From: a virus
DNA length: 64,000 bases
Virus record (IMG/VR): IMGVR_UViG_3300009320_000011
Coordinates: 11,152 to 75,151 of that record
Direction: 5' to 3' (one strand)
Positions 10,798 through 47,502 of the stretch are shown piece by piece. The notes beneath the pieces were generated by a model, which had not been told where the DNA came from, searched no databases, and worked only from the letters and a program-made list of their open reading frames with translations. Position numbers and translations under genes: made by a program. Numbering within the stretch: position 1 is the stretch's first letter; every line of letters starts with the position of its first letter.

Positions 10798-11286
10798 ATG
10801 CCAGACTTGTTAGATCCACAAGAAATAATGTTCACAAGTTTTGAACCGAAAGTAGCTAATAGGTTCATTATGTACGTAGATGGAATACCAGCATATTTAA
10901 TTAACGCAGCAGGCACGCCGAATCCATCATTTGGTGAAATTACACTTGAACATATAAACGTAAAACGCAAATTAAAAGGAAAAGCTGTTTGGGCTGATAT
11001 CACGATATCATTATACGATCCAATTGTACCATCAGCTGCTCAAGCGGTAATGGAGTGGATTCGTCTATCTCATGAAGCAGTAACTGGCCGCGACGGCTAC
11101 TCAGATTTCTATAAAAAGGATTTGACATTTAATGCACTTGGACCAGTGGGCGATAAAGTTGGTCAGTGGACATTAAAAGGAGCTTGGATCAAAGATGCTA
11201 AATTCGGTGATTACGATTGGGCAACTGAAGATGCTATAAAAGTTGAGGTATCAATAGCATATGACTACGCAATATTAGATTACTGA
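10798..11286 (+). CDS. Tail tube protein (T4 gp19-like)
   Basis: FEPKVANRF, KGKAVWADITISLYDPIVPSAAQAVMEW, GRDGYSDFYKKD, WTLKGAW. Confidence 0.9.
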   Translation: MPDLLDPQEIMFTSFEPKVANRFIMYVDGIPAYLINAAGTPNPSFGEITLEHINVKRKLKGKAVWADITISLYDPIVPSAAQAVMEWIRLSHEAVTGRDGYSDFYKKDLTFNALGPVGDKVGQWTLKGAWIKDAKFGDYDWATEDAIKVEVSIAYDYAILDY

Positions 11287-28259: not shown

Positions 28260-29081
28260 ATGCCAATTGACAAAAAAATTATTAAAGAGAAATTAGAAAG
28301 AATTTCACAATCAGCCAGACGTAGAAAAATCGTTTGGAAACCAGACGCAGGAGACCAATATGTACGTATTGTTCCTTATAAATCAAATCCGGGCTTCCCA
28401 TTTATTGAACTATATTTCCATTATGGATTTATGGGTAAGAACATTTTATCACCAACAACATTTGATGAACCAGACCCATTGGTAGAATATGCCAATAAAC
28501 TGAGAGAATCAGGTGATAAAAAGGATTATGAAAATTCTAAAAAGTTATTTCCAAAAATGAGAGTTTATGCTCCGATCCTTGTTCGTGGTGAAGAAGGAGA
28601 AGGTGTTAAATTCTGGGGATTTAATAAAACCATTTATGAAGAATTCTTAGGAATATTAAGTGATCCTGTTTGGGGCGATATTACTGACCCAGCAGAAGGT
28701 AGAGATGTAAAAGTAACATTTATACCAGCAAAGAGTAAGGATACATATCCAAAAACTACTATTGTGGTACAACCAAATATTACACCAATTAGTACAGATA
28801 CGGCGATCATATCTGAAGTGAAGAATCAAGCACCAATATCTGATGCTTATACAACACCAACATATGAGGAAATGGTTGATTTGTTAAATGAATATTTGGA
28901 GGTTACACCTGAATCAGATGAAGAAGAAGAAGACAAACCGAAAGAGCCAACAGAAAAAGGTTATGATGATCTACCATTCGATAGCAAAGAAGTTCCAGAA
29001 AAAAAGGAATCAACCAAGAATGTTAGAGGCATCGATAAACTAAAAAGCGAGTTGGATAACTTATTCCCATCAGAAGAATAA
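28260..29081 (+). CDS. Single-stranded DNA-binding protein (T4 gp32-like)
   Basis: VRIVP, PFIELYFHY, EGVKFWGF, GDITDP.EGRD, acidic tail ending LDNLF. Confidence 0.85.
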   Translation: MPIDKKIIKEKLERISQSARRRKIVWKPDAGDQYVRIVPYKSNPGFPFIELYFHYGFMGKNILSPTTFDEPDPLVEYANKLRESGDKKDYENSKKLFPKMRVYAPILVRGEEGEGVKFWGFNKTIYEEFLGILSDPVWGDITDPAEGRDVKVTFIPAKSKDTYPKTTIVVQPNITPISTDTAIISEVKNQAPISDAYTTPTYEEMVDLLNEYLEVTPESDEEEEDKPKEPTEKGYDDLPFDSKEVPEKKESTKNVRGIDKLKSELDNLFPSEE

Positions 29082-29099
29082 ATAAATTAAGAGATTTTT

Positions 29100-30296
29100 A
29101 TGGAAAATAAAAGAAGTGAACTCGCTGAGTTATTAGCGAACACGCTTAATAATAAATTTAAAGCAACCAATTATAAAACAGCCTATTTTCTTGAAGACGA
29201 TCCCGATGCACCCACAAATGTAAATGAGTGGGTGCCAACTGGGTCATCTATACTTGATATTAAAATATCAAATAAACCAAATGGAGGATTTCCCGTTGGT
29301 CGTATAATTGAGCTTCTAGGATTGGAGGCTAGCGGAAAATCTTTACTAGCCGCGCATGCACTAGCCAATACACAGAAACTGGGAGGCATAGCAGTTTATA
29401 TTGAAACTGAAAGTTCAGTAAGCAAAGAATTTCTAAGAGCAATCGGGGTTGATTTGAAGAATTTGGTATATGTACCACTTGATACAATTGAAGACGTATT
29501 TGAAGCGATTGAATCAATTATCGAAAAAATCAGAAAAACAAGTAAAGATGTTCTAGTAACTATAGTAGTTGACTCAGTTGCAGCAACAACTACAAAACTG
29601 GAAATGTCATCTGACTATGATAAAGCCGGATATAATACTGGTAAGTCTATTATCATTTCACAGGCCTTACGTAAAATAACCAATACAATCGCTCGTGAGC
29701 GAGTGTGTTTAATATTCACAAATCAGCTTAGAAAAAACATGAACTCAATGCCTGGAACCGATCCATATACCACAAGTGGTGGTATGGCTCTTGCGTTTCA
29801 TTCATCTGTTAGAATCCGATTGAGAAATATGGGCAAATTAAAAACCAAGGCAGGCGGTGTTGAAGAAGTAGTCGGTATGAAGACTCGAGTTGTTATTACA
29901 AAGAACCGAGTTGGTCCACCGTGGAAGGAATTGGTGTATGATATATATTTCAATTCTGGAATTGATAATTGTGGTGGTTGGTTGACCACAATGAAGGAAA
30001 GAAAACTTGTCAAACAAGCGGGAGCTTGGTACGAGTATACAGATAAAGATACTGGTGAAGTTCTAAAATTTCAATCTAAAACATTTGAATCAGACATATT
30101 ATCTGATGAAACTAGAAAAGAAACAATATATAATGATATATGTAATTCATTGATATCAAAATATAGAGCCAATGAAGATGGTGGTATTGATGATATCAAA
30201 GTTGATGAGAACATATATGATGAAGATATTGATGAACTAACAGACTCGGAAGATGATGCAAAACCATCAGCAAAAATAAAACCAAATGTCAAATAA
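29100..30296 (+). CDS. uvsX: RecA/UvsX recombinase
   Basis: Walker A GLEASGKS, IVVDSVAA, IFTNQLR, TSGG.AL.FHSSVR, KNRVGPP. Confidence 0.95.
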   Translation: MENKRSELAELLANTLNNKFKATNYKTAYFLEDDPDAPTNVNEWVPTGSSILDIKISNKPNGGFPVGRIIELLGLEASGKSLLAAHALANTQKLGGIAVYIETESSVSKEFLRAIGVDLKNLVYVPLDTIEDVFEAIESIIEKIRKTSKDVLVTIVVDSVAATTTKLEMSSDYDKAGYNTGKSIIISQALRKITNTIARERVCLIFTNQLRKNMNSMPGTDPYTTSGGMALAFHSSVRIRLRNMGKLKTKAGGVEEVVGMKTRVVITKNRVGPPWKELVYDIYFNSGIDNCGGWLTTMKERKLVKQAGAWYEYTDKDTGEVLKFQSKTFESDILSDETRKETIYNDICNSLISKYRANEDGGIDDIKVDENIYDEDIDELTDSEDDAKPSAKIKPNVK

Positions 30297-31311
30297 TATA
30301 ATAAATAGGAGTAAAGCAGAGTCCATCCACCAAGACATTAATTCAAAGGTGTTGATAGTGGATGGACTTTAACTCAACTTATATATTCGTTGTTTTGCCG
30401 CTATACCCGCAATGAATGGCGAAGGATATCATGTCGGTGGTATAACAGGATTTTTGAAATCAATTGCGTATGCCATCCGACAATTTAATCCAACAAGATG
30501 TATAATTGTGTTTGATGGAAAAAATGGATCGGTTAGACGCAGGAAATTATACCCAGATTATAAACATAAAAGTACTATTTCATCAAAGTATAATCGGATG
30601 TATAAAAATGATGCTGACGAAGTGGCATCGATGAAAAAACAATTTTCTAGATTACTTGATTATTTAAGTACTTTACCTATATCTATAATATCAATAGATG
30701 GTATTGAAGCTGATGATACAATAGCATATGCATCAACTGAAATACTAAAAGATAGTGATGTAGTTATATTATCAACTGATAGGGATTTCTTACAATTGGT
30801 CGACAAACGAATCAATGTGTGGAGTCCTATTAAAAAGATACTATATAATGTTGATACAATTAAAGAGGAATTTGGTATAAGTCCTAATAATTTTTTATTG
30901 TATAAAATGTTCGTCGGAGATAATTCAGATAATATTCCGGGAATCAAGGGAGTTGGAATTAAAACAATTGAAAAAAGATTTTCATTTCTAAAAGAGGACA
31001 AAGAATATAGCATTAATGATATTATTAATGAATGTGTATTAAATCAAAATACTAAAATCAAAATATATGATTCCGTAATAAACCAAAAAGATCAACTGTT
31101 GTTAAATAAACAACTGATGGATTTGAAAAATTTAGACATATCAGGAAACTCAAAATTATTAATAGGATATAAAATAGAAGAGAAAATAGAAAGCTTAAAT
31201 AAAATAGCATTCGTTGGAATGTTATTAAAGGATGATATTATTAACTTGGTTGGTGATGTACATTTCTGGCTAAAAAACTCATTCGATAAATTGAACTACT
31301 ATGCAAAGTGA
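30286..31311 (+). CDS. 5'-3' exonuclease/flap endonuclease (T4 RNase H-like), interrupted by in-frame TAA at 30370-30372
   Basis: VLIVDGL*LNLYIR, VFDG, EADD, STDRDFLQL, GDNSDNIPGIKGVG; the start at 30286 is in frame with the track ORF at 30412. Confidence 0.85.
30309..30375 (+). promoter_or_regulatory. Hairpin plus codon-STOP-codon element in the exonuclease gene
   Basis: AGAGTCCATCCAC (30318-30330) pairs with GTGGATGGACTTT (30358-30370); CTT TAA CTC. Confidence 0.75.
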
Positions 31312-32695
31312 TAACTTAAAAGAACACGACGATAACTTTCAAGCTAAATTAATAGCTTCTTTTATCACTGATAAGTTTTTCTTTCAACAAGTAATTGATG
31401 TTATTGATCCAAAGCATTTTACTACAGAGATGGACCAGTTTGTCGTTAAATTAATGTTTGATCACTTTTTGGATTATAAACAATTACCGACAGGAACTGT
31501 AATAAAAACTGAAATTGAAAAGATTAAAGATGATGTATTGAGATCATCAATATATGATAGATTAAAAAAAGTTCAATCGGTTATTGACTCGACTGATTTA
31601 CAATATGTCAAGGATGAATATTTGAAATTCTGTCTAACCAAAGAAATCGAATCAGCACTAATAAAATCAGCTGACTTATTACAAGTTGGTGAATTAGATG
31701 GAATAAAAACACTAGTCAGTAATGCATTTAATTCAATATCGGATCGCGATTTTGGTCATAATTACTTAAAAGGATTTGAAGATAGATACGAGAAAGATAT
31801 CCGAAATCCAATACCAACTCCATGGCCGGTTATTAATAAAATAATGGATGGCGGATTATCTGGAGGAGAACTTGGGTGTGTAATCTCACCGCCCGGAAGA
31901 GGAAAAACATGGAGTTTGTCGGCAATTGGTTCTCACGCTCTTAAGATTGGAAAAAATGTATTACATTATACACTTGAAATTAATGAGCATTATGTGGCAA
32001 AACGATATGATTCAATATACAGCGGCGTACCATTTTCAGAACTAAGGTTCAAAAAAGAAGAGGTATTTGATAGTATTAAAAGTTATGATGAATCAACTCT
32101 AATAATAAAAAAATATGGTGGCAAAAAAGCATCAATACAAACTCTTACTGCTCATATTGAAAAATGTATCAATAATGGAATAAAGCCAGATTTGATTGTT
32201 GTAGATTATGCTGATTTACTAAAACCTACAATATATCATAATAAAGAATCACATGCGATATTGCAAGACATATATGTCGACTTATGCGTATTGGCCGAAG
32301 AATATAATATACCGTGCTGGACTGCATCACAAACCGGAAGACATGCTATAAACTTAGATATTATTGAAGATGATTCAATTGCCGGATCATATGGCAAAAT
32401 AATGGAATCATATTTTGTTATGACAGTATCAAGAAATGTAACAGATAAAGAAGGCGGAACAGCAAAAATCTTTGTGGCAAAGAATAGATTTGGTCCAGAT
32501 GGATTAACTTTTCCTTCGAAATTTAATGCAAGCAACGGCCGGATATTGATATATGAAAAAGATAGCATTGAAGGAAAAAAAGTAACGAATGATCTAGACA
32601 ATGATATACCAACAAGAGTTGAATTACGTGATAGGTTCAATGATTTGATGGGCAAAGACAAAAAATTAGATGATAAAAAAATAGATTTAGGATAA
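31301..32695 (+). CDS. Replicative DnaB-like helicase (T4 gp41-like)
   Basis: SPPGRGKT, HYTLE, VVDYADLL, WTASQ, KNRFGPDG. Confidence 0.9.
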   Translation: MQSDNLKEHDDNFQAKLIASFITDKFFFQQVIDVIDPKHFTTEMDQFVVKLMFDHFLDYKQLPTGTVIKTEIEKIKDDVLRSSIYDRLKKVQSVIDSTDLQYVKDEYLKFCLTKEIESALIKSADLLQVGELDGIKTLVSNAFNSISDRDFGHNYLKGFEDRYEKDIRNPIPTPWPVINKIMDGGLSGGELGCVISPPGRGKTWSLSAIGSHALKIGKNVLHYTLEINEHYVAKRYDSIYSGVPFSELRFKKEEVFDSIKSYDESTLIIKKYGGKKASIQTLTAHIEKCINNGIKPDLIVVDYADLLKPTIYHNKESHAILQDIYVDLCVLAEEYNIPCWTASQTGRHAINLDIIEDDSIAGSYGKIMESYFVMTVSRNVTDKEGGTAKIFVAKNRFGPDGLTFPSKFNASNGRILIYEKDSIEGKKVTNDLDNDIPTRVELRDRFNDLMGKDKKLDDKKIDLG

Positions 32696-32716
32696 TATTT
32701 AGGAGGATATATATAC

Positions 32717-33919
32717 ATGCTATACAATTATAATGATGTTTTAGAAAAAACAAAACAGTATTTTGATGGTGATGAGTTAGCAGCTATAGCTTGGATCAAT
32801 AAATACGCTTTAAAGGACTCAGATAAAAATATATATGAGCTAACTCCAGATGATATGCACAATAGACTGGCTGATGAAATATCTAGAGTGGAAAATACAT
32901 ATGATAATCCAATAACCAGACAACAAATATATGAATTATTAAAAGACTTTCAATATGTTATTCCACAAGGCGGACCAATGGCCGGCATAGGAAATAACTA
33001 TCAGATTACATCCTTATCAAATTGTTTTGTCGTTGGCAGTGATCCACCGGCAGATTCATATGGTGGTATATTAAAAACTGACGAACAACAAGTTCAACTG
33101 ATGAAACGTAGGGGAGGAGTTGGACATGATTTGTCGCACTTAAGACCATCAAATTCATCTGTACAAAATTCAGCATTAACGTCAACTGGTGTTACTTCAT
33201 TTATGGAGAGATATTCTAATTCAACTAGGGAAGTAGCACAAGACGGTCGTCGTGGTGCTTTAATGCTAACACTATCGATAAAACACCCCGATGTACTTGA
33301 ATTTATTAAGATTAAATCTAATTTAGATAAAGTTACTGGAGCAAATGTGTCTATAAAATTGACTGATGAATTTTTGAAATCGGTTATTGCTGATAAAAAA
33401 TTTACACATACATTTCCAATTAATGCAACTGGCGATGATATAAAACAGACAAAAGAAGTTAATGCTATTGACTTATGGAATCAAATTGTATTTAATGCTT
33501 GGAATACTGCTGAACCTGGAATATTATTTTGGGATAAAATTATATCTGAAAGTCCAGCTGATTGTTATAAATCAGATGGATTTGAAACAGTGAGCACGAA
33601 TCCATGTGTTTCGGGCGATACAATAATAACAACCAATATTGGCAAATTGACAGTTAAAGAAATTTTTGAAAGATTTAATAATGGTGAAAAATTTATTATT
33701 GATTCGTTTAATGTTAAAGAAAACAAACTAGAAAAAGATGAAATAGAGGATATATTATTGACAAAAAGAAATGCGAATACTATAGAATTAATTTTAGAAG
33801 ATAATTCAACACTTGTTTTAACACCAGACCATAAAGTGTTTACTAAAAATAGAGGATGGGTCAATGCGTGCCAGCTTTGTGAAGAAGATATTTTATTAAA
33901 GATTGATGAAAAAAGTTGA
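32717..33919 (+). CDS. nrdJ: Class II ribonucleotide reductase fragment 1 plus split-intein N-half (from 33605)
   Basis: SLSNCFV, RRGGVGHDLS, RRGALM, AEPGILFWD, STNP/CVSGDT..LTPDHKV. Confidence 0.9.
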   Translation: MLYNYNDVLEKTKQYFDGDELAAIAWINKYALKDSDKNIYELTPDDMHNRLADEISRVENTYDNPITRQQIYELLKDFQYVIPQGGPMAGIGNNYQITSLSNCFVVGSDPPADSYGGILKTDEQQVQLMKRRGGVGHDLSHLRPSNSSVQNSALTSTGVTSFMERYSNSTREVAQDGRRGALMLTLSIKHPDVLEFIKIKSNLDKVTGANVSIKLTDEFLKSVIADKKFTHTFPINATGDDIKQTKEVNAIDLWNQIVFNAWNTAEPGILFWDKIISESPADCYKSDGFETVSTNPCVSGDTIITTNIGKLTVKEIFERFNNGEKFIIDSFNVKENKLEKDEIEDILLTKRNANTIELILEDNSTLVLTPDHKVFTKNRGWVNACQLCEEDILLKIDEKS

Positions 33920-33969
33920 AAAATTTATTTTCGTGATATATATAGTATATTAAAGATGGGCACAGATTT

Positions 33970-34737
33970 ATGGAAAATGAAAATTTAGATGAGTTTAGAA
34001 ATTTTATATCTGATATATATGAGCAAAAATTTTTTGATGTTAAAGGTAAGGCGCGATTTCATAATATTGAAAAAATTAAAAATGACAAAAGATATGAAAA
34101 TTCTAAAAAGATTATTGAAAAATATTATTATGAAAAAGGATTTGGCATAAAATATTTTATAAAATATTTCAAATTGAATGTTTCTTACCCAGTTCTTAGA
34201 AAGTGTTTCTTAAATTTTTTTGAAATAAAATTGAGGAGTTATGAAGAAATAACAGATAATTTACGCAAACTAAGAAGGGAAAAAATAGAATATGAGAGAG
34301 AAAACAATATGGGATGGTTTTCTGAAGAATCAAGAAGAAAGACAAAAATAAGAAATTCTATACAGAGGGGGATCCAAGGTTATTTTTTTAATGAGAGCAG
34401 AAATAAATTCGTTTGGTTAAGAAGTTCTTGGGAATATATTTTTGCAAAATGGCTTAATAAAAATAAATTTGATTGGGACGTTGAAGTAGAAATGTATAAT
34501 GTGGGAGGCAAGAAATATAGGCCAGATTTCTTTATATTTGAAAATAGCAAGATAACAAAAATTATAGAAGTTAAAGGCTATTGGAAAAATAATAATTGGA
34601 AATTTGAAGTATTAGGTGAACAATTAAAAGATAAAAATATAGAATTTATTTTGATAGAAAATATTTTACCCTATTGTTCACTTAAATTCAAAGATGAGGT
34701 GGAAACTTGGAAACTAGAAAGAAAGGCAGACAAATGA
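33970..34737 (+). mobile_element. Free-standing PD-(D/E)XK homing endonuclease between intein halves
   Basis: LRSSWE, YRPDFF..IIEVKGYW. Confidence 0.75.
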
Positions 34738-35780
34738 AAGTTATAGAAACAAAAATAAAAAAAATCAATATTCATAAGAATGAAACTGTTTATGATTTGA
34801 AAGTTAAAAAAAATAATAACTTTTTTGCTAATGATTTATTGGTCCACAATTGTTCAGAAATTCCGTTGTGTATTTTTGATTCTTGTCGTCTATTAGCAAT
34901 AAATTTATATAGTTATGTTTCAAATCCATTTACAAAAAAAGCAAAATTTGATTTTGATTTGTTTAAACAACATATTGGATTTGTTACACGTATTATGGAC
35001 GATATTATTGATTTGGAGCTTGAAAAAATTAAAGTGATTATTACAAAAATAGATAATGATCCAGAACTACCCGAGATTAAATTGGTTGAAAAACGCCTAT
35101 GGGAAAATATTTATCACAAAACATCAGCTGGTCGCAGAACAGGAATTGGAATCACAGCTGAAGGAGACATGTTAGCCGCATTGGGTATTCAATATGCTAG
35201 TAAAAAGGCCATTGGATTCTCTACACGCGTGCATAAATTATTGGCAATAGAATCATATCGTGAATCAATTAATCTATCAAAAGAGAGAGGTAGTTTTTCA
35301 ATATGGAATTTAGATAAAGAAAAAGATAATCCATTTATTAAAAGAATAATGGAAGCTGAACCTGATTTATTGGATGATTACAAAAAATATGGTAGACGAA
35401 ATATATCAATGTTAACTGTCGCGCCGACTGGGTGTTTAGTTGATTCAACTAAAATTAAAACAGATCACGGATATATAACATTGGCAGAATTATTTTTGGT
35501 TAATGGATATGATCTGGAGAGACTTAGGGGACTACGAGATATGTGGATAGAACCAACCCAGGATATATATGTGTATAATATATTTGGTGAGAAGAATAGA
35601 ATCACGAAATTATATTGGGCGGGTGAATATAACACGAAAAGAATTAGATTGAGCGATGATAATTTGTTGGAGTCAACCATGAATCATAAATTTTTAGTTA
35701 AACTAAATAATAAAGAAGCAATATGGAAGAAGGCAGTTGATTTACGGGTTGGTGATATTATTATTAAGAAAATTGAATAA
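34734..35780 (+). CDS. nrdJ: NrdJ fragment 2: intein C-half (34734-34850), extein, second intein N-half (from 35433)
   Basis: VYDLKV..NNFFANDLLVHN/CSEIPL ... RRTGIG ... TVAPTG/CLVDST..STMNHKF. Confidence 0.9.
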   Translation: MKVIETKIKKINIHKNETVYDLKVKKNNNFFANDLLVHNCSEIPLCIFDSCRLLAINLYSYVSNPFTKKAKFDFDLFKQHIGFVTRIMDDIIDLELEKIKVIITKIDNDPELPEIKLVEKRLWENIYHKTSAGRRTGIGITAEGDMLAALGIQYASKKAIGFSTRVHKLLAIESYRESINLSKERGSFSIWNLDKEKDNPFIKRIMEAEPDLLDDYKKYGRRNISMLTVAPTGCLVDSTKIKTDHGYITLAELFLVNGYDLERLRGLRDMWIEPTQDIYVYNIFGEKNRITKLYWAGEYNTKRIRLSDDNLLESTMNHKFLVKLNNKEAIWKKAVDLRVGDIIIKKIE

Positions 35781-35795
35781 ATATTTGATATTTTT

Positions 35796-35843
35796 ACTAT
35801 TGCTCTATACTTATACTAAAGGAACATAAATAGGAGCAATAGT
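35796..35843 (+). promoter_or_regulatory. RBS/start-sequestering hairpin with a late-promoter-like motif in the loop
   Basis: ACTATTGCTC pairs with GAGCAATAGT; TATACTTATA at 35806-35815. Confidence 0.7.
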
Positions 35844-36966
35844 GAGAAATATAAAAAAAATATCGTATTTGGAAAAATATAACAAACTAGTTGAAGAACA
35901 TGGACCAATAGAGGGAATGAATCAATATTACCGATTTATTAGGGGGGTGTCATTAGAAAAATATATATTGAAATATGGTGAAATAGATGGTAAGAAAAAA
36001 TACGACGAATGGAAAGATATACAAAAGAATTCGGGGGTTTCTTTGGATAAAATGATTAAAAAATATGGTGAAATAGATGGTAAGAAAAAATATGAGAATT
36101 GGAAACAAGATACTAGACAAGATTTAAACGCGTTTATAAAAAGATATGGCCGCATTAGTGGTGAAGAAAAATATAATGAATTTAAAAGAAAATCATTGGC
36201 CGCATTATCTAAAGTGGATCAATCAAAAAAGAAGTCAATTAGAAAATTAAATTATTGGATGGATGTTACTAACGGTGATGTTCAACTTGCAAAAAGAAAA
36301 TTATCCGAATATCAAAATACAGCAAGTTTAGATAAATTTATAAATAAATATGGGGATGTAGATGGTAAAAGACGGTATTTGGAAACAAATGCAAAAAGAG
36401 GAACGACACTACGAACAATGATCGAAAAATATGGTGAAGTAGAAGGTAAAGAAAAATACGAGATTTGGAGGAATACCAATAAGCACTTGAAAGAGGATTG
36501 GATAAAAAAATATGGTGAAGTAGACGGTAATAGGAGATATCTAGAATTAACAAAAAAGAAAATAGAAAGAACCAAAAGATATTCTGATATTGGTTTGGAA
36601 TTCTGTGAAGAAATATATAAGAAACTTTGTCATAAATATAGCAATTTTTATTACGGGGAATCAGAATATATGTTTTTTATATTTGAAGATGATGTAAGGA
36701 TAATAGTCCCAGATATGTATATAAAAGATATAAATTTGGTTATCGAATTTTATGGTGATTTCTGGCATAAAAATCCATTAATATATGATATTTCGCAAGA
36801 ATTTGTAAAAGAAACATGGGAACGAGACGAAAAACGGATCTCCATACTAGAAAAGAAAATAAATTCCAATGTAATAATAGTGTGGGAATATGATTATCGC
36901 AAAGATCCGGATGGTGTAATAAATAAAATAGTGGATGAAATAATTATGAATTATGGAAAAGATTAA
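35842..36966 (+). mobile_element. Free-standing Vsr-like homing endonuclease with KYGE.DGK..Y repeats
   Basis: At least six KYGxxxG repeats; VPDMY...IEFYGDFWH..IVWE. Confidence 0.75.
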
Positions 36967-38104
36967 TATAGAGAATATACAATATGAAGAATTAACTGTG
37001 ATTAGTGTAGATGATAATGTTGCTGAAACAATGGATATTGAAGTTGAGAACGATCATTATTATGAACTAGATGGTGGGATATATTCGCACAATACTGTAT
37101 CATTATTAACACAAACCACATCGGGCATTGAACCGTTATTTATGCCATATTATAAAAGAAATAAAAAAATTAATTCAAATGATGTTGATGCAAAGGTACA
37201 TCATACGGATGCTTCGGGTGATAGTTGGGAACAATATAATGTATTTCATCCAAAACTAAAACACTGGATGGAATTGATGGGGCATACTAATATTGAGGAT
37301 AAAATAGATGATGAGTTAAATAATATATTTGAAAAATCTCCATACTTTGGATCAACTGCAAATGACATTAATTGGTTGGATAAAGTTAAAATGCAAGGTG
37401 AAATACAAAAGTGGGTCGACCATTCAATATCAGTAACAGTTAATTTACCAAATACAGCAACAGAAGAATTAATATCAGATATATTTAAGCAGTCTTGGAA
37501 ATCAGGCTGCAAGGGCATTACAGTATATCGCGATGGTTGTCGTGCCGGTGTTTTGATATCAAATAACGATTTAGATAGAAATGGGACTAAAATCCAACAT
37601 AACTCAGCACCAAAACGTCCAAAAATACTTGATTGTGATATACACCAAATAACAGCTCTTGGTAAAAAATGGGTTGTATTGGTTGGTTTATTAGAAGGAG
37701 ATCCATATGAAGTTTTTGCATTCAAACAAGATAAAATAACTATATCACCAAAATTTACAAAAGGATTATTAACACGACATAAGAGCGGCCATTATAAACT
37801 AGAAATACCAGACACAATAGAATTCAATGATATTACAAATTTGTTTGAACGTGATGAGCAAGAATCTCTCACTAGAATTTTATCATGGGGATTACGACAC
37901 GGCGGCGGCGTTAAATATGCAATGGAACAACTGAATAAATCGGGTGAATCAATAGCATCATTTAGTAAAGCTATTTCACGAACATTGAAAAAATATATTA
38001 ATGACGGTGATAAATCTAGTGTGCTATGTCCTGAGTGTGGCGGTGAAATGATATATCAAGAGGGATGCATACGCTGCAAATCTTGTTCGTGGAGTAAATG
38101 TTAA
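36953..38104 (+). CDS. nrdJ: NrdJ fragment 3: intein C-half (36953-37093) plus C-terminal extein with a Zn ribbon
   Basis: TMDIEV..HYY..GIYSHN/TVSLL..SGIEP, VDHSISVTVN, KGITVYRDG, CPECG..EGC..C..C.WSKC. Confidence 0.9.
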   Translation: MEKINIENIQYEELTVISVDDNVAETMDIEVENDHYYELDGGIYSHNTVSLLTQTTSGIEPLFMPYYKRNKKINSNDVDAKVHHTDASGDSWEQYNVFHPKLKHWMELMGHTNIEDKIDDELNNIFEKSPYFGSTANDINWLDKVKMQGEIQKWVDHSISVTVNLPNTATEELISDIFKQSWKSGCKGITVYRDGCRAGVLISNNDLDRNGTKIQHNSAPKRPKILDCDIHQITALGKKWVVLVGLLEGDPYEVFAFKQDKITISPKFTKGLLTRHKSGHYKLEIPDTIEFNDITNLFERDEQESLTRILSWGLRHGGGVKYAMEQLNKSGESIASFSKAISRTLKKYINDGDKSSVLCPECGGEMIYQEGCIRCKSCSWSKC

Positions 38105-38108
38105 AATT

Positions 38109-38441
38109 ATGAAAAAGGTATTACTTGAAGAATTGAATTGGCCAAATGATTTCGATAGCGATTGGTTAAATGAGATAATAGAATCTGTTAATGAAACATC
38201 TGATTGGAATGGAAAAGCTAAAATGGTAATTACACAAAAAGATGTTGATGATTATAATGGATTATTTGATAATATGCTGGGATGGGAATTCCAAATTCAA
38301 CAAAATAAACATGAAGACCATAAGACCGATGGCCAAATGGTTGAATATCAAATTAGCATAACTGATAATAAAAAACAAAAAACACAATTTTATACTGAAA
38401 TGTGTTTGATGGTTGGTTGGAACATTAAGTTATTAAAATAG
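38109..38441 (+). CDS. Hypothetical protein
   Basis: Intact ORF in operon orientation. Confidence 0.55.
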   Translation: MKKVLLEELNWPNDFDSDWLNEIIESVNETSDWNGKAKMVITQKDVDDYNGLFDNMLGWEFQIQQNKHEDHKTDGQMVEYQISITDNKKQKTQFYTEMCLMVGWNIKLLK

Positions 38442-38469
38442 TATTGAAATGAAAAAAAATAAATAACGA

Positions 38470-41211
38470 ATGTACCAAAATCTTTTTTTCGATCGAGAAA
38501 GTTATGTAATGCACGTCTTCGACGATGCTAAAGGATACTATAAATCCAAATACAATTCGTATGCCTATGTATTAGATGCTGGTGGTATGTATAATACACT
38601 GGATGGCAAAACTGTTAAGAGGATACCGGGATATAAGGTTAAAGAATATGATAAAAGTTTATTATATGAATCAGATGTAAAACCAGAAATAAGGTTTTTG
38701 ATCGACAAGTACGGACTATCAGATGAACCATCCAAAAATCATATTACACTATTTTTTGATATCGAAGTCGAATCAGCTGATGGTTTCCCAGACCAAGTAT
38801 TAGCTGAGCAAGAGGTAACTGCAATATCATGTTGGATAAAAGAGATAGATTCATCTATACTACTTCTTCTTGATAAAAGCGACATTATAAAAGATGTAAA
38901 TAAGAAAAATGTTAAAATTATATCATTCAAAGATGAAGTATCTTTATTGGATGAATTTATTAATATATTACACAAAATCAAACCAACGATACTAACTGGT
39001 TGGAATATAAATAACTTTGATATACCATATCTATATAATAGGTATACCAATATATTTGGTGAAGATGTAGCAAAACAATTAAGTCCAATTAACATAGTTA
39101 AAGAGGATCATTATAACGACGGTGAATATAAAATAGCTGGTGTAAATTGTTTAGACTATTTATTATTATATAAGAAATTCGAATCAAACCAGAAACAAGC
39201 ATATTCACTTGATTTTATTGGTGAATTGGAGATAGGACTTGGCAAGGTAAAATATGACAAATCATTGGATGATCTATACAATACAGACATCGAAGGATTT
39301 ATTGAGTATTGTTTTCGTGATGTTGAAATTGTAAAACAACTTGATGAAAAATTAAACCATATTGAACTGACTAAGATGGTATGTCATAAAGGACACGTAC
39401 CATACGAAGATATATTTATGTCGTCTAGATATTTAGAAGGAGCGATATTAACGTATTTGAAAAATAATGAAATAGTATCACCCAATAAAAAACCAGAAAT
39501 CAAACTTGTATTATCTCGAGATCATAACTTAGATGAATCAAAATTATATGTTAGAAGCATACCAAAAGAAACACCATTAAGTGGTATGTTAGGCATAAAG
39601 AAATCAAAATCCTCATTTGTATATGTCGACTATAAAGAATATAAGGGGAACTATTTCATATTAAAGGAACCACTAAAAGAATATATAGATAAAACTTATA
39701 AGGTATCGTTCGAGTTTACAGGAGCTAGAGTTAAACCACCAAAACCAGGTAGGTTTAAGTGGATGTTTGATTTAGACTTAAAATCAATGTATCCGTTTTC
39801 AATTATTACATTGAATATATCTCCAGAAACAAAAAAAGGCAAAGTATTTGAATTTGACCCATATGAGTTTTATAATAATAAAGACGCAAATATAAGAGTC
39901 ATATTTGACTCAGATGAATTATTGATTACGTATTCTGAATTAAGGAAATTGTTGATAAAATATAATTGTTCTATATCATCCAATGGAATAATTTATTCAC
40001 TTGAAAAACGTGGTTTGATACCAAATATACTTGAATTGTGGTCTTTTGAGCGCGATGATGTAAAGGAAAAACGCGATGAACATAAAGAAGGATCAAAGAA
40101 ATATCAGTATTTCGATAGACTCCAGGAAAGGCAAAAGGTTTTGCTTAACTCAATTTATGGGTGTCTTGGTCTGCAATCATTTCGTTGGTATGATTTAGAT
40201 AATGCGGAAGCAACAACGTCGAGTGGAAGGACATTAATAACATATTCAGAAAAAGTTGCAAATTTATTTTATAATAAAGAGTTAAATATCGATGTAAGTG
40301 CATCAAAAAATAATCAAGTAGATTATTGTGCTTACATCGATACGTAGATGGATTCATTATTCTTTTCAACTTTACCAATTATTGAAAAAAGATATCCAAC
40401 TGAGGATTATGAAAATGATTCTTTTATGATTAATAAAACACTTGAAATCACTAGAGAAATACAAAACTTTATTAATGATTCGTATAAAAATTATTCAAAT
40501 GGATTTCATTGTGTTAAAAATCATAGCTACAAAATTAAGCAAGAACTTGTAGCAAAATCCGGATTTTGGTTAGATGTAAAGAAACGATATGCATTACTAA
40601 TAGTTGATAAAGAGGGCGTGAGACTTGAAAAACCAAAATTAGATGTAAAGGGATTGGATACTGTACGTAGTGATTTTCCAAATAGTATGCGTGAGTTTAT
40701 GAAGGAAACATTAATGCATATATTAGAGTTTAAGTCAAAAGAGTTTTTGGATAAACATATTGAGCAATTCAAAGAAAAAATAAATTCAATTGAAGTAAAA
40801 GATATCGCTCGACCATCTTCAGTAAATGGTATTGGTAAGTATTCTGGAAGAAAAACACCAGGAGGATTGACTGAAATTAAAAAAGGAGCTCAATCACATA
40901 TAAAAGGATGTATATATTATAATGATTTGATTAATATATTTGATCAATCAAAAGATTACGAGCACATCAGGAATAAAGATAAAATTAAGAGTGTTTACTT
41001 GAAAGACAATCCATATCAATTTGAATCTTTATCTTATCGGGGATATGACGATCCGCCAGAAATTATTGAATTTATTGAAAAATATATAGACCGAAATAAA
41101 ATCTTTGAATTATTGCTGGTAAATAAATTAAATTCATTCTATAAAGCTTTGGGCTGGGGCGAGATTAATGCGTTAATAAATAAAAACATAAATAAATTTT
41201 TTGATTTTTAG
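38470..41211 (+). CDS. Family B DNA polymerase (T4 gp43-like), interrupted by TAG ATG inside motif C
   Basis: FFDIEV, TGWNI..FDIPY, DLKSMYP, KVLLNSIYG, YIDT*MDS, KKRYA, VKG; both track ORFs are in the same frame. Confidence 0.9.
40287..40353 (+). promoter_or_regulatory. Hairpin plus codon-STOP-codon element in PolB
   Basis: TATCGATGTAAGTGCA (40287-40302) pairs with TGTGCTTACATCGATA (40327-40342); inner ATAATC/GATTAT stem; ACG TAG ATG. Confidence 0.75.
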
Positions 41212-41964
41212 ATGATATACAATTATAAAGACGGAGACATAGACTTTAGTGATATAACTCTTAATTTAAGAGCTGATCAAAAGAGAAAAGTAAGAACTAA
41301 AAATACTGATATACTATACAAATATCAGAATAAGTATTATACGAAATACAAATCGAATTACCGACGGTTGCTTTGGAATACTAAGACCGCGATGAGTAAT
41401 AATTATATTTTGGCATGCAAATTTATAGATTTCAGCACGGTCGATTCATTTATCGATATTGGATGTGGAACTGGAGAGTTTATAGATTATGTTATATCAA
41501 ATCATGAAATAGACAATATTGTTGGCGTCGATGCCGTACCAAATTTTGTTGATTATGCTAAAAAAGAAAATAAAAATCATAATGTAGAATTTATAAATGA
41601 CAATCTATTTAATATACCAAATAACGATGGCATTAAAACATATGATCTCTGCACTATGATTGGTGTATTGCAGGTATTAGATCTAAATTCAATGGAGCAT
41701 ATTTTTGATGTAATCAAAGAAGTAGTAAATAGTGGCGGTCAAATTTGGCTAACATCAGTTAATTATTATAAGTATATAAAACATCGTTTTAGTACAGACA
41801 ATCGACGATTGGCTGGAACTTGGAAACATAAAGTTGAAGAAGTGGTATATTATATGAAAGATGATTTTCATGATATTAAATTCGGTTCTTTCGATAAAGA
41901 TGGAGAAATAGCTGAAAATAAATACGACGGCAGATATATTTTCGTTTATGGAGTTAAAAACTAA
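41212..41964 (+). CDS. Class I SAM-dependent methyltransferase
   Basis: FIDIGCGTG, VGVD. Confidence 0.8.
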   Translation: MIYNYKDGDIDFSDITLNLRADQKRKVRTKNTDILYKYQNKYYTKYKSNYRRLLWNTKTAMSNNYILACKFIDFSTVDSFIDIGCGTGEFIDYVISNHEIDNIVGVDAVPNFVDYAKKENKNHNVEFINDNLFNIPNNDGIKTYDLCTMIGVLQVLDLNSMEHIFDVIKEVVNSGGQIWLTSVNYYKYIKHRFSTDNRRLAGTWKHKVEEVVYYMKDDFHDIKFGSFDKDGEIAENKYDGRYIFVYGVKN

Positions 41965-47364: not shown

Positions 47365-47502
47365 AATATTTTCTAGAAAACATATACTAATTTAATATTC
47401 TTATGCCATTCGTGTCATGCTAGAACCGCAAACTCGCATGATGATGGTTGGATTGATTATTATGTAAATAAAAATAAACAGTTTTATGAAAAAGAAATTT
47501 AG
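47354..47502 (+). pseudogene. Internally deleted HNH endonuclease remnant between the intein halves
   Basis: ATG 47354 gives MKFEIFSRKH; the frame from 47389 reads NLIFLCHSCHARTA...*. Confidence 0.65.

Follow-up and report, generated by a model that had tools for sequence, protein, structure and literature searches.

For a long time, ribosomal bypassing has been known chiefly from a single well-studied example, gene 60 of phage T4, together with a few others, and in-frame stop-hops have been known only as engineered constructs. Synthetic stop-hops in E. coli, with matched codons around the stop (Weiss et al. 1987), are established according to a 2016 review, and the same review states that "no occurrences are known" of stop-hopping in nature (PMC5009743). 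Re-pairing in the ribosomal P site has been found to tolerate mismatches (bioRxiv 2022.08.31.505936), pairing of the mRNA as it leaves the ribosome has been proposed to drive forward bypassing in gene 60 (bioRxiv 2024.12.09.627546), and bypass in the terminase gene of Streptomyces phage Hau3 has been shown by mass spectrometry in E. coli (PMC10732093). Here, we describe an in-frame TAG directly followed by ATG inside catalytic motif C of a gp43-like family B DNA polymerase gene (PolB). The gene lies in a window of 64,000 nucleotides, the whole stretch of DNA analyzed, which comprises positions 11,152 to 75,151 of IMG/VR virus record IMGVR_UViG_3300009320_000011. We lean, at slightly better than even confidence, towards the reading that the TAG-ATG marks a programmed hop over 6 nucleotides, in which tRNA-Thr would move from ACG to AUG and thereby restore the motif YIDTDS.

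This site does not stand by itself. A hairpin, a codon, a stop and a near-matching codon recur in a second polymerase lineage, and the same architecture interrupts the 5'-3' exonuclease gene of the phage. On balance, we find it somewhat more plausible than otherwise that T4-like phages have a family of hairpin-driven, programmed 6-nucleotide stop-hops with which they decode essential replication genes whose catalytic motifs are interrupted. Within such a family, the ACG-stop-AUG of PolB would, by a similarly modest preponderance, be a rare member, and the CUN-stop-CUN of the exonuclease, seen with each of the three stop codons across about 70 contigs, the common one.

A hairpin and an in-frame stop within polymerase motif C

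The upstream part of the polymerase gene (38470..40344; the polymerase and exonuclease features of the window are all on the plus strand) comprises 625 codons that encode the exonuclease domain, the palm and fingers, and the first half of motif C (..CAYIDT), with Pfam matches to DNA_pol_B_exo1 (2.5e-27) and DNA_pol_B (5e-19). It ends in ACG, the codon for the threonine of motif C and the proposed take-off codon (40342..40344). The in-frame TAG (40345..40347), which would occupy the A site at take-off, is followed by ATG (40348..40350), the proposed landing codon or, in a rival reading, a restart codon. The downstream part (40351..41211) begins with the catalytic Asp-Ser of motif C and continues into the remaining palm and the thumb. 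With its own start codon at ATG 40348 it forms an open reading frame (ORF) of 287 amino acids, and it matches DNA_pol_B (4e-6) and divDNApol; when the stop is read through, a single DNA_pol_B match extends over residues 383-775. The frame around the stop reads ..DYCAYIDT*MDSLFFS.. (ACG TAG ATG GAT TCA), and the split of motif C as YIDT-TAG-ATG-DS, with ORFs of 625 and 287 amino acids, is therefore as a first-pass annotation, made from the letters of the window, had read it. Removing the 6 nucleotides restores the family consensus YIDTDS, as it stands in the close relative P0002 and in 139 further relatives.

Directly upstream of the stop lies an RNA hairpin (40287..40342) with a 16-base-pair outer stem, an inner stem of 6 base pairs and a 5-nucleotide loop. 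The outer stem proposed in the first-pass annotation, in which 40287-40302 (TATCGATGTAAGTGCA) pairs with 40327-40342 (TGTGCTTACATCGATA), is exact to the base and includes two G.U pairs; the inner ATAATC/GATTAT stem with its AAGTA loop is present as described, and pairing runs as far as the A of ACG 40342-40344, where the stem had been said to stop. The 3' arm encodes the conserved C-A-Y-I-D, and the 5' arm falls within an insertion of 8 codons. The annotation had also suggested RNA folding and covariation analysis as checks. Folding gives -24.1 kcal/mol, compared with -10.4 +/- 2.4 in 200 shuffles (z -5.6), none of which was as stable, and the hairpin is among the three most stable 63-nucleotide stretches when 12,788 such pieces are tiled over the 64 kb. 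No Shine-Dalgarno motif was found upstream of ATG 40348. The take-off codon is itself unusual, given that ACG accounts for 8% of threonine codons in the phage and is used at the motif C threonine by none of 60 relatives (L001-L068). Pfam finds no intein in either part of the polymerase; the intervening sequence is 6 nucleotides and holds no Hint domain.

These features suggest how a hop could proceed. With ACG (Thr) in the P site and TAG in the A site, decoding would be slow. The 3' arm of the hairpin would at that moment lie inside the mRNA channel, and its tendency to re-pair with the exposed 5' arm would pull the mRNA forward. Peptidyl-tRNA-Thr (anticodon CGU) would then leave ACG and re-pair 6 nucleotides on at AUG (A-U, U.G, G-C), the use of ACG having brought in a tRNA with a C34 able to pair with the G of AUG. 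Decoding would restart at GAU and yield one chain of about 911 amino acids with YIDTDS intact, for which the predicted tryptic peptide across the junction is NNQVDYCAYIDTDSLFFSTLPIIEK. The sequences themselves show how the site is built, that it recurs and covaries, and that hairpin and stop go together; the hop, its efficiency and the part of the hairpin as its driver are what we infer from them.

Recurrence in an exonuclease gene and a second polymerase lineage

The 5'-3' exonuclease (RNase H/FEN) gene of the phage (30286..31311) begins at ATG 30286 and has 312 codons after an in-frame stop. Its 12-base-pair hairpin (30319-30330 with 30358-30369; -28.6 kcal/mol, z -6.3) has a 3' arm ending in CTT (30367-69), which is followed by TAA (30370-72) and CTC (30373-75), and the frame reads ..K-V-L-I-V-D-G-L(CTT) TAA CTC(L)-N-L-Y-I-R... 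The 28 codons before the stop encode the true N-terminus with the catalytic Asp; the Pfam profile 5_3_exonuc_N is matched over positions 1-164 only across the stop, and the ORF from ATG 30412 covers positions 24-164. Translation cannot begin at the CTC after the stop, and restart is therefore excluded there. Throughout the 75-kb record, just two in-frame stops that join two open frames stand behind a hairpin of -23 kcal/mol or lower, those of PolB and of the exonuclease, and of the stop-hop candidates in the window we regard the exonuclease site as the clearest. A generic scan across every fetched locus gave no convincing further cassettes in other genes. One candidate, AAT-TAA-ATA in G001, was rejected as an ordinary gene end, and the window site at 47465 reads ATG-TAA-ATA behind a fold of -15.4 kcal/mol.

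Exonuclease cassettes are widespread in IMG/VR. When 80 exonuclease relatives were retrieved by homology, two proved to have CTT-TAG-CTT in the same position, and ..DG[L/T]N.. is uninterrupted in 77 of the 79 that were parsed. In pattern scans of the database, 46 true loci, which form 18 clusters at 80% identity, had a TAG or TAA and a further 23 had a TGA, making about 69 contigs besides the window (L272, L291, L303-L379, L415-L439); some 26 further matches to the pattern (..IDGL*FNFFISLLLL..) form a false-positive family with a closed frame. Every exonuclease cassette has a hairpin, with a fold energy between -18 and -37 kcal/mol and 0-4 nucleotides left unpaired before the stop. The covariation analysis revealed compensatory changes in these hairpins, such as one pair that is A-T in nine cassettes and G-C in nine. 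The codons flanking the stop share their first two bases in all 70 cassettes, that of the window included (CTN-CTN, TTG-TTA and, once, TTC-TTA), which is what peptidyl-tRNA re-pairing across the stop predicts. In most cassettes the upstream codon is CTT, although this codon is rare at that position in contiguous relatives (3 of 79). A DNA search of cultured phages with the exonuclease cassette returned no match, and no isolate carrying one was identified.

A pattern scan also uncovered a second polymerase lineage, L072 and L073, from two assemblies (L174 is the same contig as L072), which reads ..N-I-Y-I-D-T(ACG) TAA ATG D-S-V-F-F... Its polymerase is of the two-gene gp43A/gp43B kind, and the cassette sits inside gp43B, 27 codons past the start, behind a perfect hairpin of 12-13 base pairs that ends just before ACG (-23.4 kcal/mol, z -3.6). 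Both PolB cassettes have a hairpin of 12-16 base pairs ending 2-3 nucleotides before the stop. The C-parts of L072/L073 and of the window are 41% identical, and L076 (94%), L077 and L099 are relatives of L072/L073 with a contiguous gp43B and no hairpin, so the hairpin and the ACG-stop-ATG either arose twice or passed as a short patch between distant polymerases. If there were no hop in L072/L073, the polymerase would need a free peptide of 27 amino acids carrying half of motif C. Scans of viral, metagenome and genome contigs for YIDT-stop-M-DS and DT-stop-M-DS gave only chance or low-complexity matches beyond L072, L073 and L174.

Uninterrupted ..DTDS.. is found in 60 IMG/VR relatives of the window's polymerase (35-39% identity) and in about 78 of a second clade. 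These proteins align to the downstream part from its residue 2 (D) and are contiguous upstream. At the site itself, the fold energy of 139 contiguous PolB relatives averages -6.2 kcal/mol and reaches a minimum of -14.0, compared with -23.2 in the window and -21.1 in L072/L073, and a hairpin ending at the threonine codon is present in 0 of the 139 versus both of the PolB cassettes. The closest proteins, P0002 (87%) and P0004 (81%), are fused, read ..NKELKTD[IV]DYCIY[IS]DTDS.. and lack the 8-residue stretch in which the window's hairpin has its 5' arm; a search of genome contigs for P0002 gave no match. Another close relative, P0003 (ENA, 82% identical), ends ..NIVGVDATKNNQQDYCIYIDT, with the stop placed as in the window and a similar insertion. 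As judged from its protein sequence alone, back-translation of its peptide V-G-V-D-A makes pairing with C-I-Y-I-D possible and, relative to I-D-V-S-A / C-A-Y-I-D in the window, the change of A to I on one arm appears to be matched by S to D on the other. The C-part on the contig of P0003 is called only from the equivalent of Met27 (P0122).

Motif C is also the site of other arrangements. Many T4-like PolBs are split just before it into gp43A and gp43B (P0005-P0007, P0020, P0029, P0046, P0051, P0066, P0069 and L073, 473-3079 on the minus strand). The gp43A tails (..I.LEDG..I.L....V.V.R.G......V.DL.E.DEI) and the gp43B heads (MKIKKI.R.EV..) resemble degenerate intein strands without catalytic residues, and three small ORFs separate the two genes in L073. 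A full intein is present in the PolB of L074 (LR756508.1, a 484-kb uncultured phage) at ..YTD|TDS.., and motif C is therefore a hot spot for several kinds of insertion.

Weighing a hop against a two-chain polymerase and other readings

We favor the hop because the PolB cassettes share the geometry of those in the exonuclease, ordinary junctions lack the hairpin, ACG is rare, and a split in L072/L073 would call for the 27-residue peptide. The idea of re-pairing from ACG to AUG had already been put forward in the first-pass annotation; it gains from the exonuclease cassettes, with their non-start codon and matched flanks, and from the second PolB lineage, and it loses from a landing codon that is mismatched at the middle base. 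This mismatch is the first of several points that weigh against the hop. Between the take-off and the landing codon of PolB the middle base changes (C vs U), as it does in 0 of 70 exonuclease cassettes, and pairing of anticodon CGU with AUG instead of ACG leaves two Watson-Crick pairs and a middle G.U. The landing codon is the start codon ATG in both PolB lineages, where ACN would be the expected choice of a pure hop, and a scan of IMG/VR for ACN-TAR-ACN at the PolB site gave chance matches only. A TAG-ATG abutment without a Shine-Dalgarno motif also joins the C-part of PolB to the next gene, a methyltransferase (41209-41214); because this ordinary junction has the same form, restart at an abutting stop and start is normal in this phage. 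Natural gp43 splits occur near motif C. The recurrence of ACG is weak evidence because the L072 clade often has it at this codon, and the PolB lineages with a cassette number only two or three, between which a short patch may have been transferred. Finally, many stop-free exonuclease genes (L223-L302, e.g., L273, L286, L299) retain a covarying hairpin of 15-20 base pairs in the corresponding position, down to -25.6 kcal/mol, which may predate or outlive the stop insert. Because so many contiguous genes keep it, the hairpin can have another role and alone is no proof of a hop.

The explanation that best withstands these comparisons after the hop, and one that we regard as rather unlikely but realistic, is a two-chain polymerase: ribosomes would stop at TAG and restart at the abutting ATG, and chains of 625 and 287 amino acids would assemble, with motif C contributed by both chain ends. 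The hairpin would then bias the post-termination ribosome forward or block independent initiation. What keeps this explanation alive is the ATG in both PolB lineages, which mismatches ACG at the middle base, and it is further served by how ordinary it is in this phage for translation to restart, without a Shine-Dalgarno motif, where a stop and a start abut. Moreover, in many metagenomic relatives the split falls immediately before motif C. The split gp43A/gp43B of Aeromonas phage 25 is active (PMC2988022), and Pfu polymerase is functional when accidentally split by termination and reinitiation (PMC3061061). However, the cut would fall in the tight DTD turn and place an extra Met before the catalytic Asp, and L072/L073 would need a third piece of 27 amino acids. 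None of the 22 ordinary coupled junctions of the window has such a hairpin, the best reaching -11.0 against -23.2 kcal/mol at PolB. Two chains would also leave unexplained both the identical architecture of the exonuclease, with no start codon after its stop, and the choice of the rare ACG. The two-subunit enzyme restarting at ATG 40348 that the first-pass annotation had listed as an alternative is thus strengthened by the recurrent ATG and by the TAG-ATG at an ordinary junction, and weakened by the absence of the hairpin from coupled junctions. The two outcomes may also be mixed, with part of the ribosomes terminating and restarting at ATG and hop and split products coexisting.

All readings other than the hop and the two-chain polymerase are improbable even when taken together. 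Readthrough of the stop, by a suppressor tRNA or under a changed code, would give YIDT-X-M-DS, and the frame is indeed open on both sides; we nevertheless consider it very improbable. Two extra residues between the aspartates of motif C should be disruptive. Ordinary genes of the phage end in TAA (43 of 70), TGA (16 of 70) and TAG (11 of 70), so the genetic code is standard, and a search across the window found no tRNA gene. In-gene stops number only two in 75 kb, which argues against stop reassignment. All three stops are used in the exonuclease cassettes, which rules out both a suppressor tRNA and a changed code, and readthrough would leave the matched flanking codons unexplained.

A dead or dying allele, or an artefact of assembly, has as little to recommend it. 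The record is a metagenomic fragment that is 38% complete, and the first-pass annotation had allowed for an assembly error. Against this, the N-part protein occurs on three JGI contigs and the C-part on four, with the same termini, and the ENA relative, 18% diverged, retains the stop after the same ..YIDT. A Logan contig from a marine run, possibly the source sample itself, matches 40288-40502 without a difference. In addition, the second lineage comes from two assemblies, both halves of the gene are conserved and in frame with no other lesion, and an insert of exactly 6 nucleotides at a catalytic motif is found twice in one phage. RNA-level removal of the six bases, by a hairpin-guided cut and re-ligation, is the least probable of all, for although RNA ligases and polynucleotide kinase are often encoded by T4-like phages, such removal is without precedent and would make the matched codons needless.

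Gene context, implications and known systems

The source record, a 75-kb IMG/VR virus fragment of 31% G+C that is estimated to be about 38% complete, appears to be of marine origin, as judged from the sequencing runs that contain it. No RNA run was among these, and one RNA run that was compared gave no match. The window carries a T4-like gene set: gp32, a recA/uvsX-like gene, RNase H/FEN, a DnaB-like helicase, ribonucleotide reductase, PolB and a clamp loader. Among cultured relatives, Microcystis phage Mel-JY01 comes closest to the PolB C-part (41%). An Rfam search over 29000-41500 gave no match. The third strongest hairpin of the window (29195-29250; -26.4 kcal/mol, z -3.8) is located within the recA/uvsX-like gene and has no stop close by. 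The large subunit of ribonucleotide reductase (region 32717-38104) is in three pieces, 32717-33919, 34707-35780 and 36953-38104, and Pfam finds intein-splicing halves at the first two breaks. Between the pieces lie an ORF at 33970-34737, possibly a nuclease candidate, with weak sub-threshold Pfam matches to DUF790 and HSDR_N, and an ORF at 35842-36966 that matches no family. This layout looks like the "fractured gene" arrangement reportedly described by Dassa et al. 2009.

If the hop is real, for which we see the evidence as tipping slightly in favor, these cassettes would be the first natural stop-hops and would define a minimal, sequence-defined bypass signal. Such a compact signal of about 60 nucleotides, consisting of a hairpin, a codon, a stop and a matching codon, would be tractable for testing forward sliding driven by refolding. 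Phage annotation would change as well, with such genes now being called as two ORFs, truncated genes or pseudogenes, and the outcome decides whether the polymerase is one chain or two. It would also raise the question of why phages tolerate inserts in catalytic motifs, for which immunity to homing endonucleases is one testable idea. The DNA of catalytic motifs is a favored target of homing endonucleases and inteins, and the 50-nucleotide insert of T4 gene 60 is said to have been proposed to spoil the target of a homing endonuclease. It is tempting to speculate that the 6-nucleotide insert spoils such a target in the same kind of DNA.

A literature search, with incomplete journal coverage, turned up no description of phage stop-hop cassettes of this kind. 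As in T4 gene 60 and its homologues, the interruption of a phage replication gene falls on an invariant residue, the take-off codon is followed by a stop, and mRNA structure is involved (bioRxiv 2022.08.31.505936). The take-off and landing codons of gene 60 match. Its gap is 50 nucleotides long and contains a Shine-Dalgarno motif, and its stop is part of a take-off stem-loop; it also has a nascent-peptide signal and is linked to the mobA endonuclease, whereas the gap here is 6 nucleotides and no endonuclease gene is adjacent. The 5' stem-loop of gene 60 is not conserved; here, the conserved element is a 5' hairpin that ends at the take-off codon. The terminase of Streptomyces phage Hau3 is likewise an essential phage gene with a short insert, 10 nucleotides in that case, and a proposed 5' stem-loop stimulator (PMC10732093). 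Its bypass is triggered by a rare UUA sense codon, brings a change of frame and has been proposed to be regulatory, in contrast to the stop in the A site and the in-frame hop proposed here.

Among split polymerases, the closest parallel is with gp43A/gp43B of Aeromonas phages 25 and 44RR, in which a T4-like PolB is encoded by two cistrons whose products co-purify and are active (Petrov 2010 via PMC2988022). An untranslated spacer or an endonuclease gene lies between the Aeromonas cistrons, whereas the frames abut here, with 6 nucleotides inside the DTD turn. Inteins use the same hot spot in motif C, at YxD|TDS in LR756508 and at DTD|S in the PolB16 split intein (PMC10189870), and differ in that the insert described here has no Hint domain and is only 6 nucleotides long. 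The nearest mechanistic counterpart would be the synthetic stop-hop, in which, as proposed for these cassettes, matched or near-matched codons flank a stop, re-pairing takes place 6 nucleotides on, nine bases are read as one residue and the frame is kept. Unlike those engineered constructs, whose efficiency is reportedly only about a percent, these cassettes occur naturally, in essential genes, and come with a 5' hairpin of their own.

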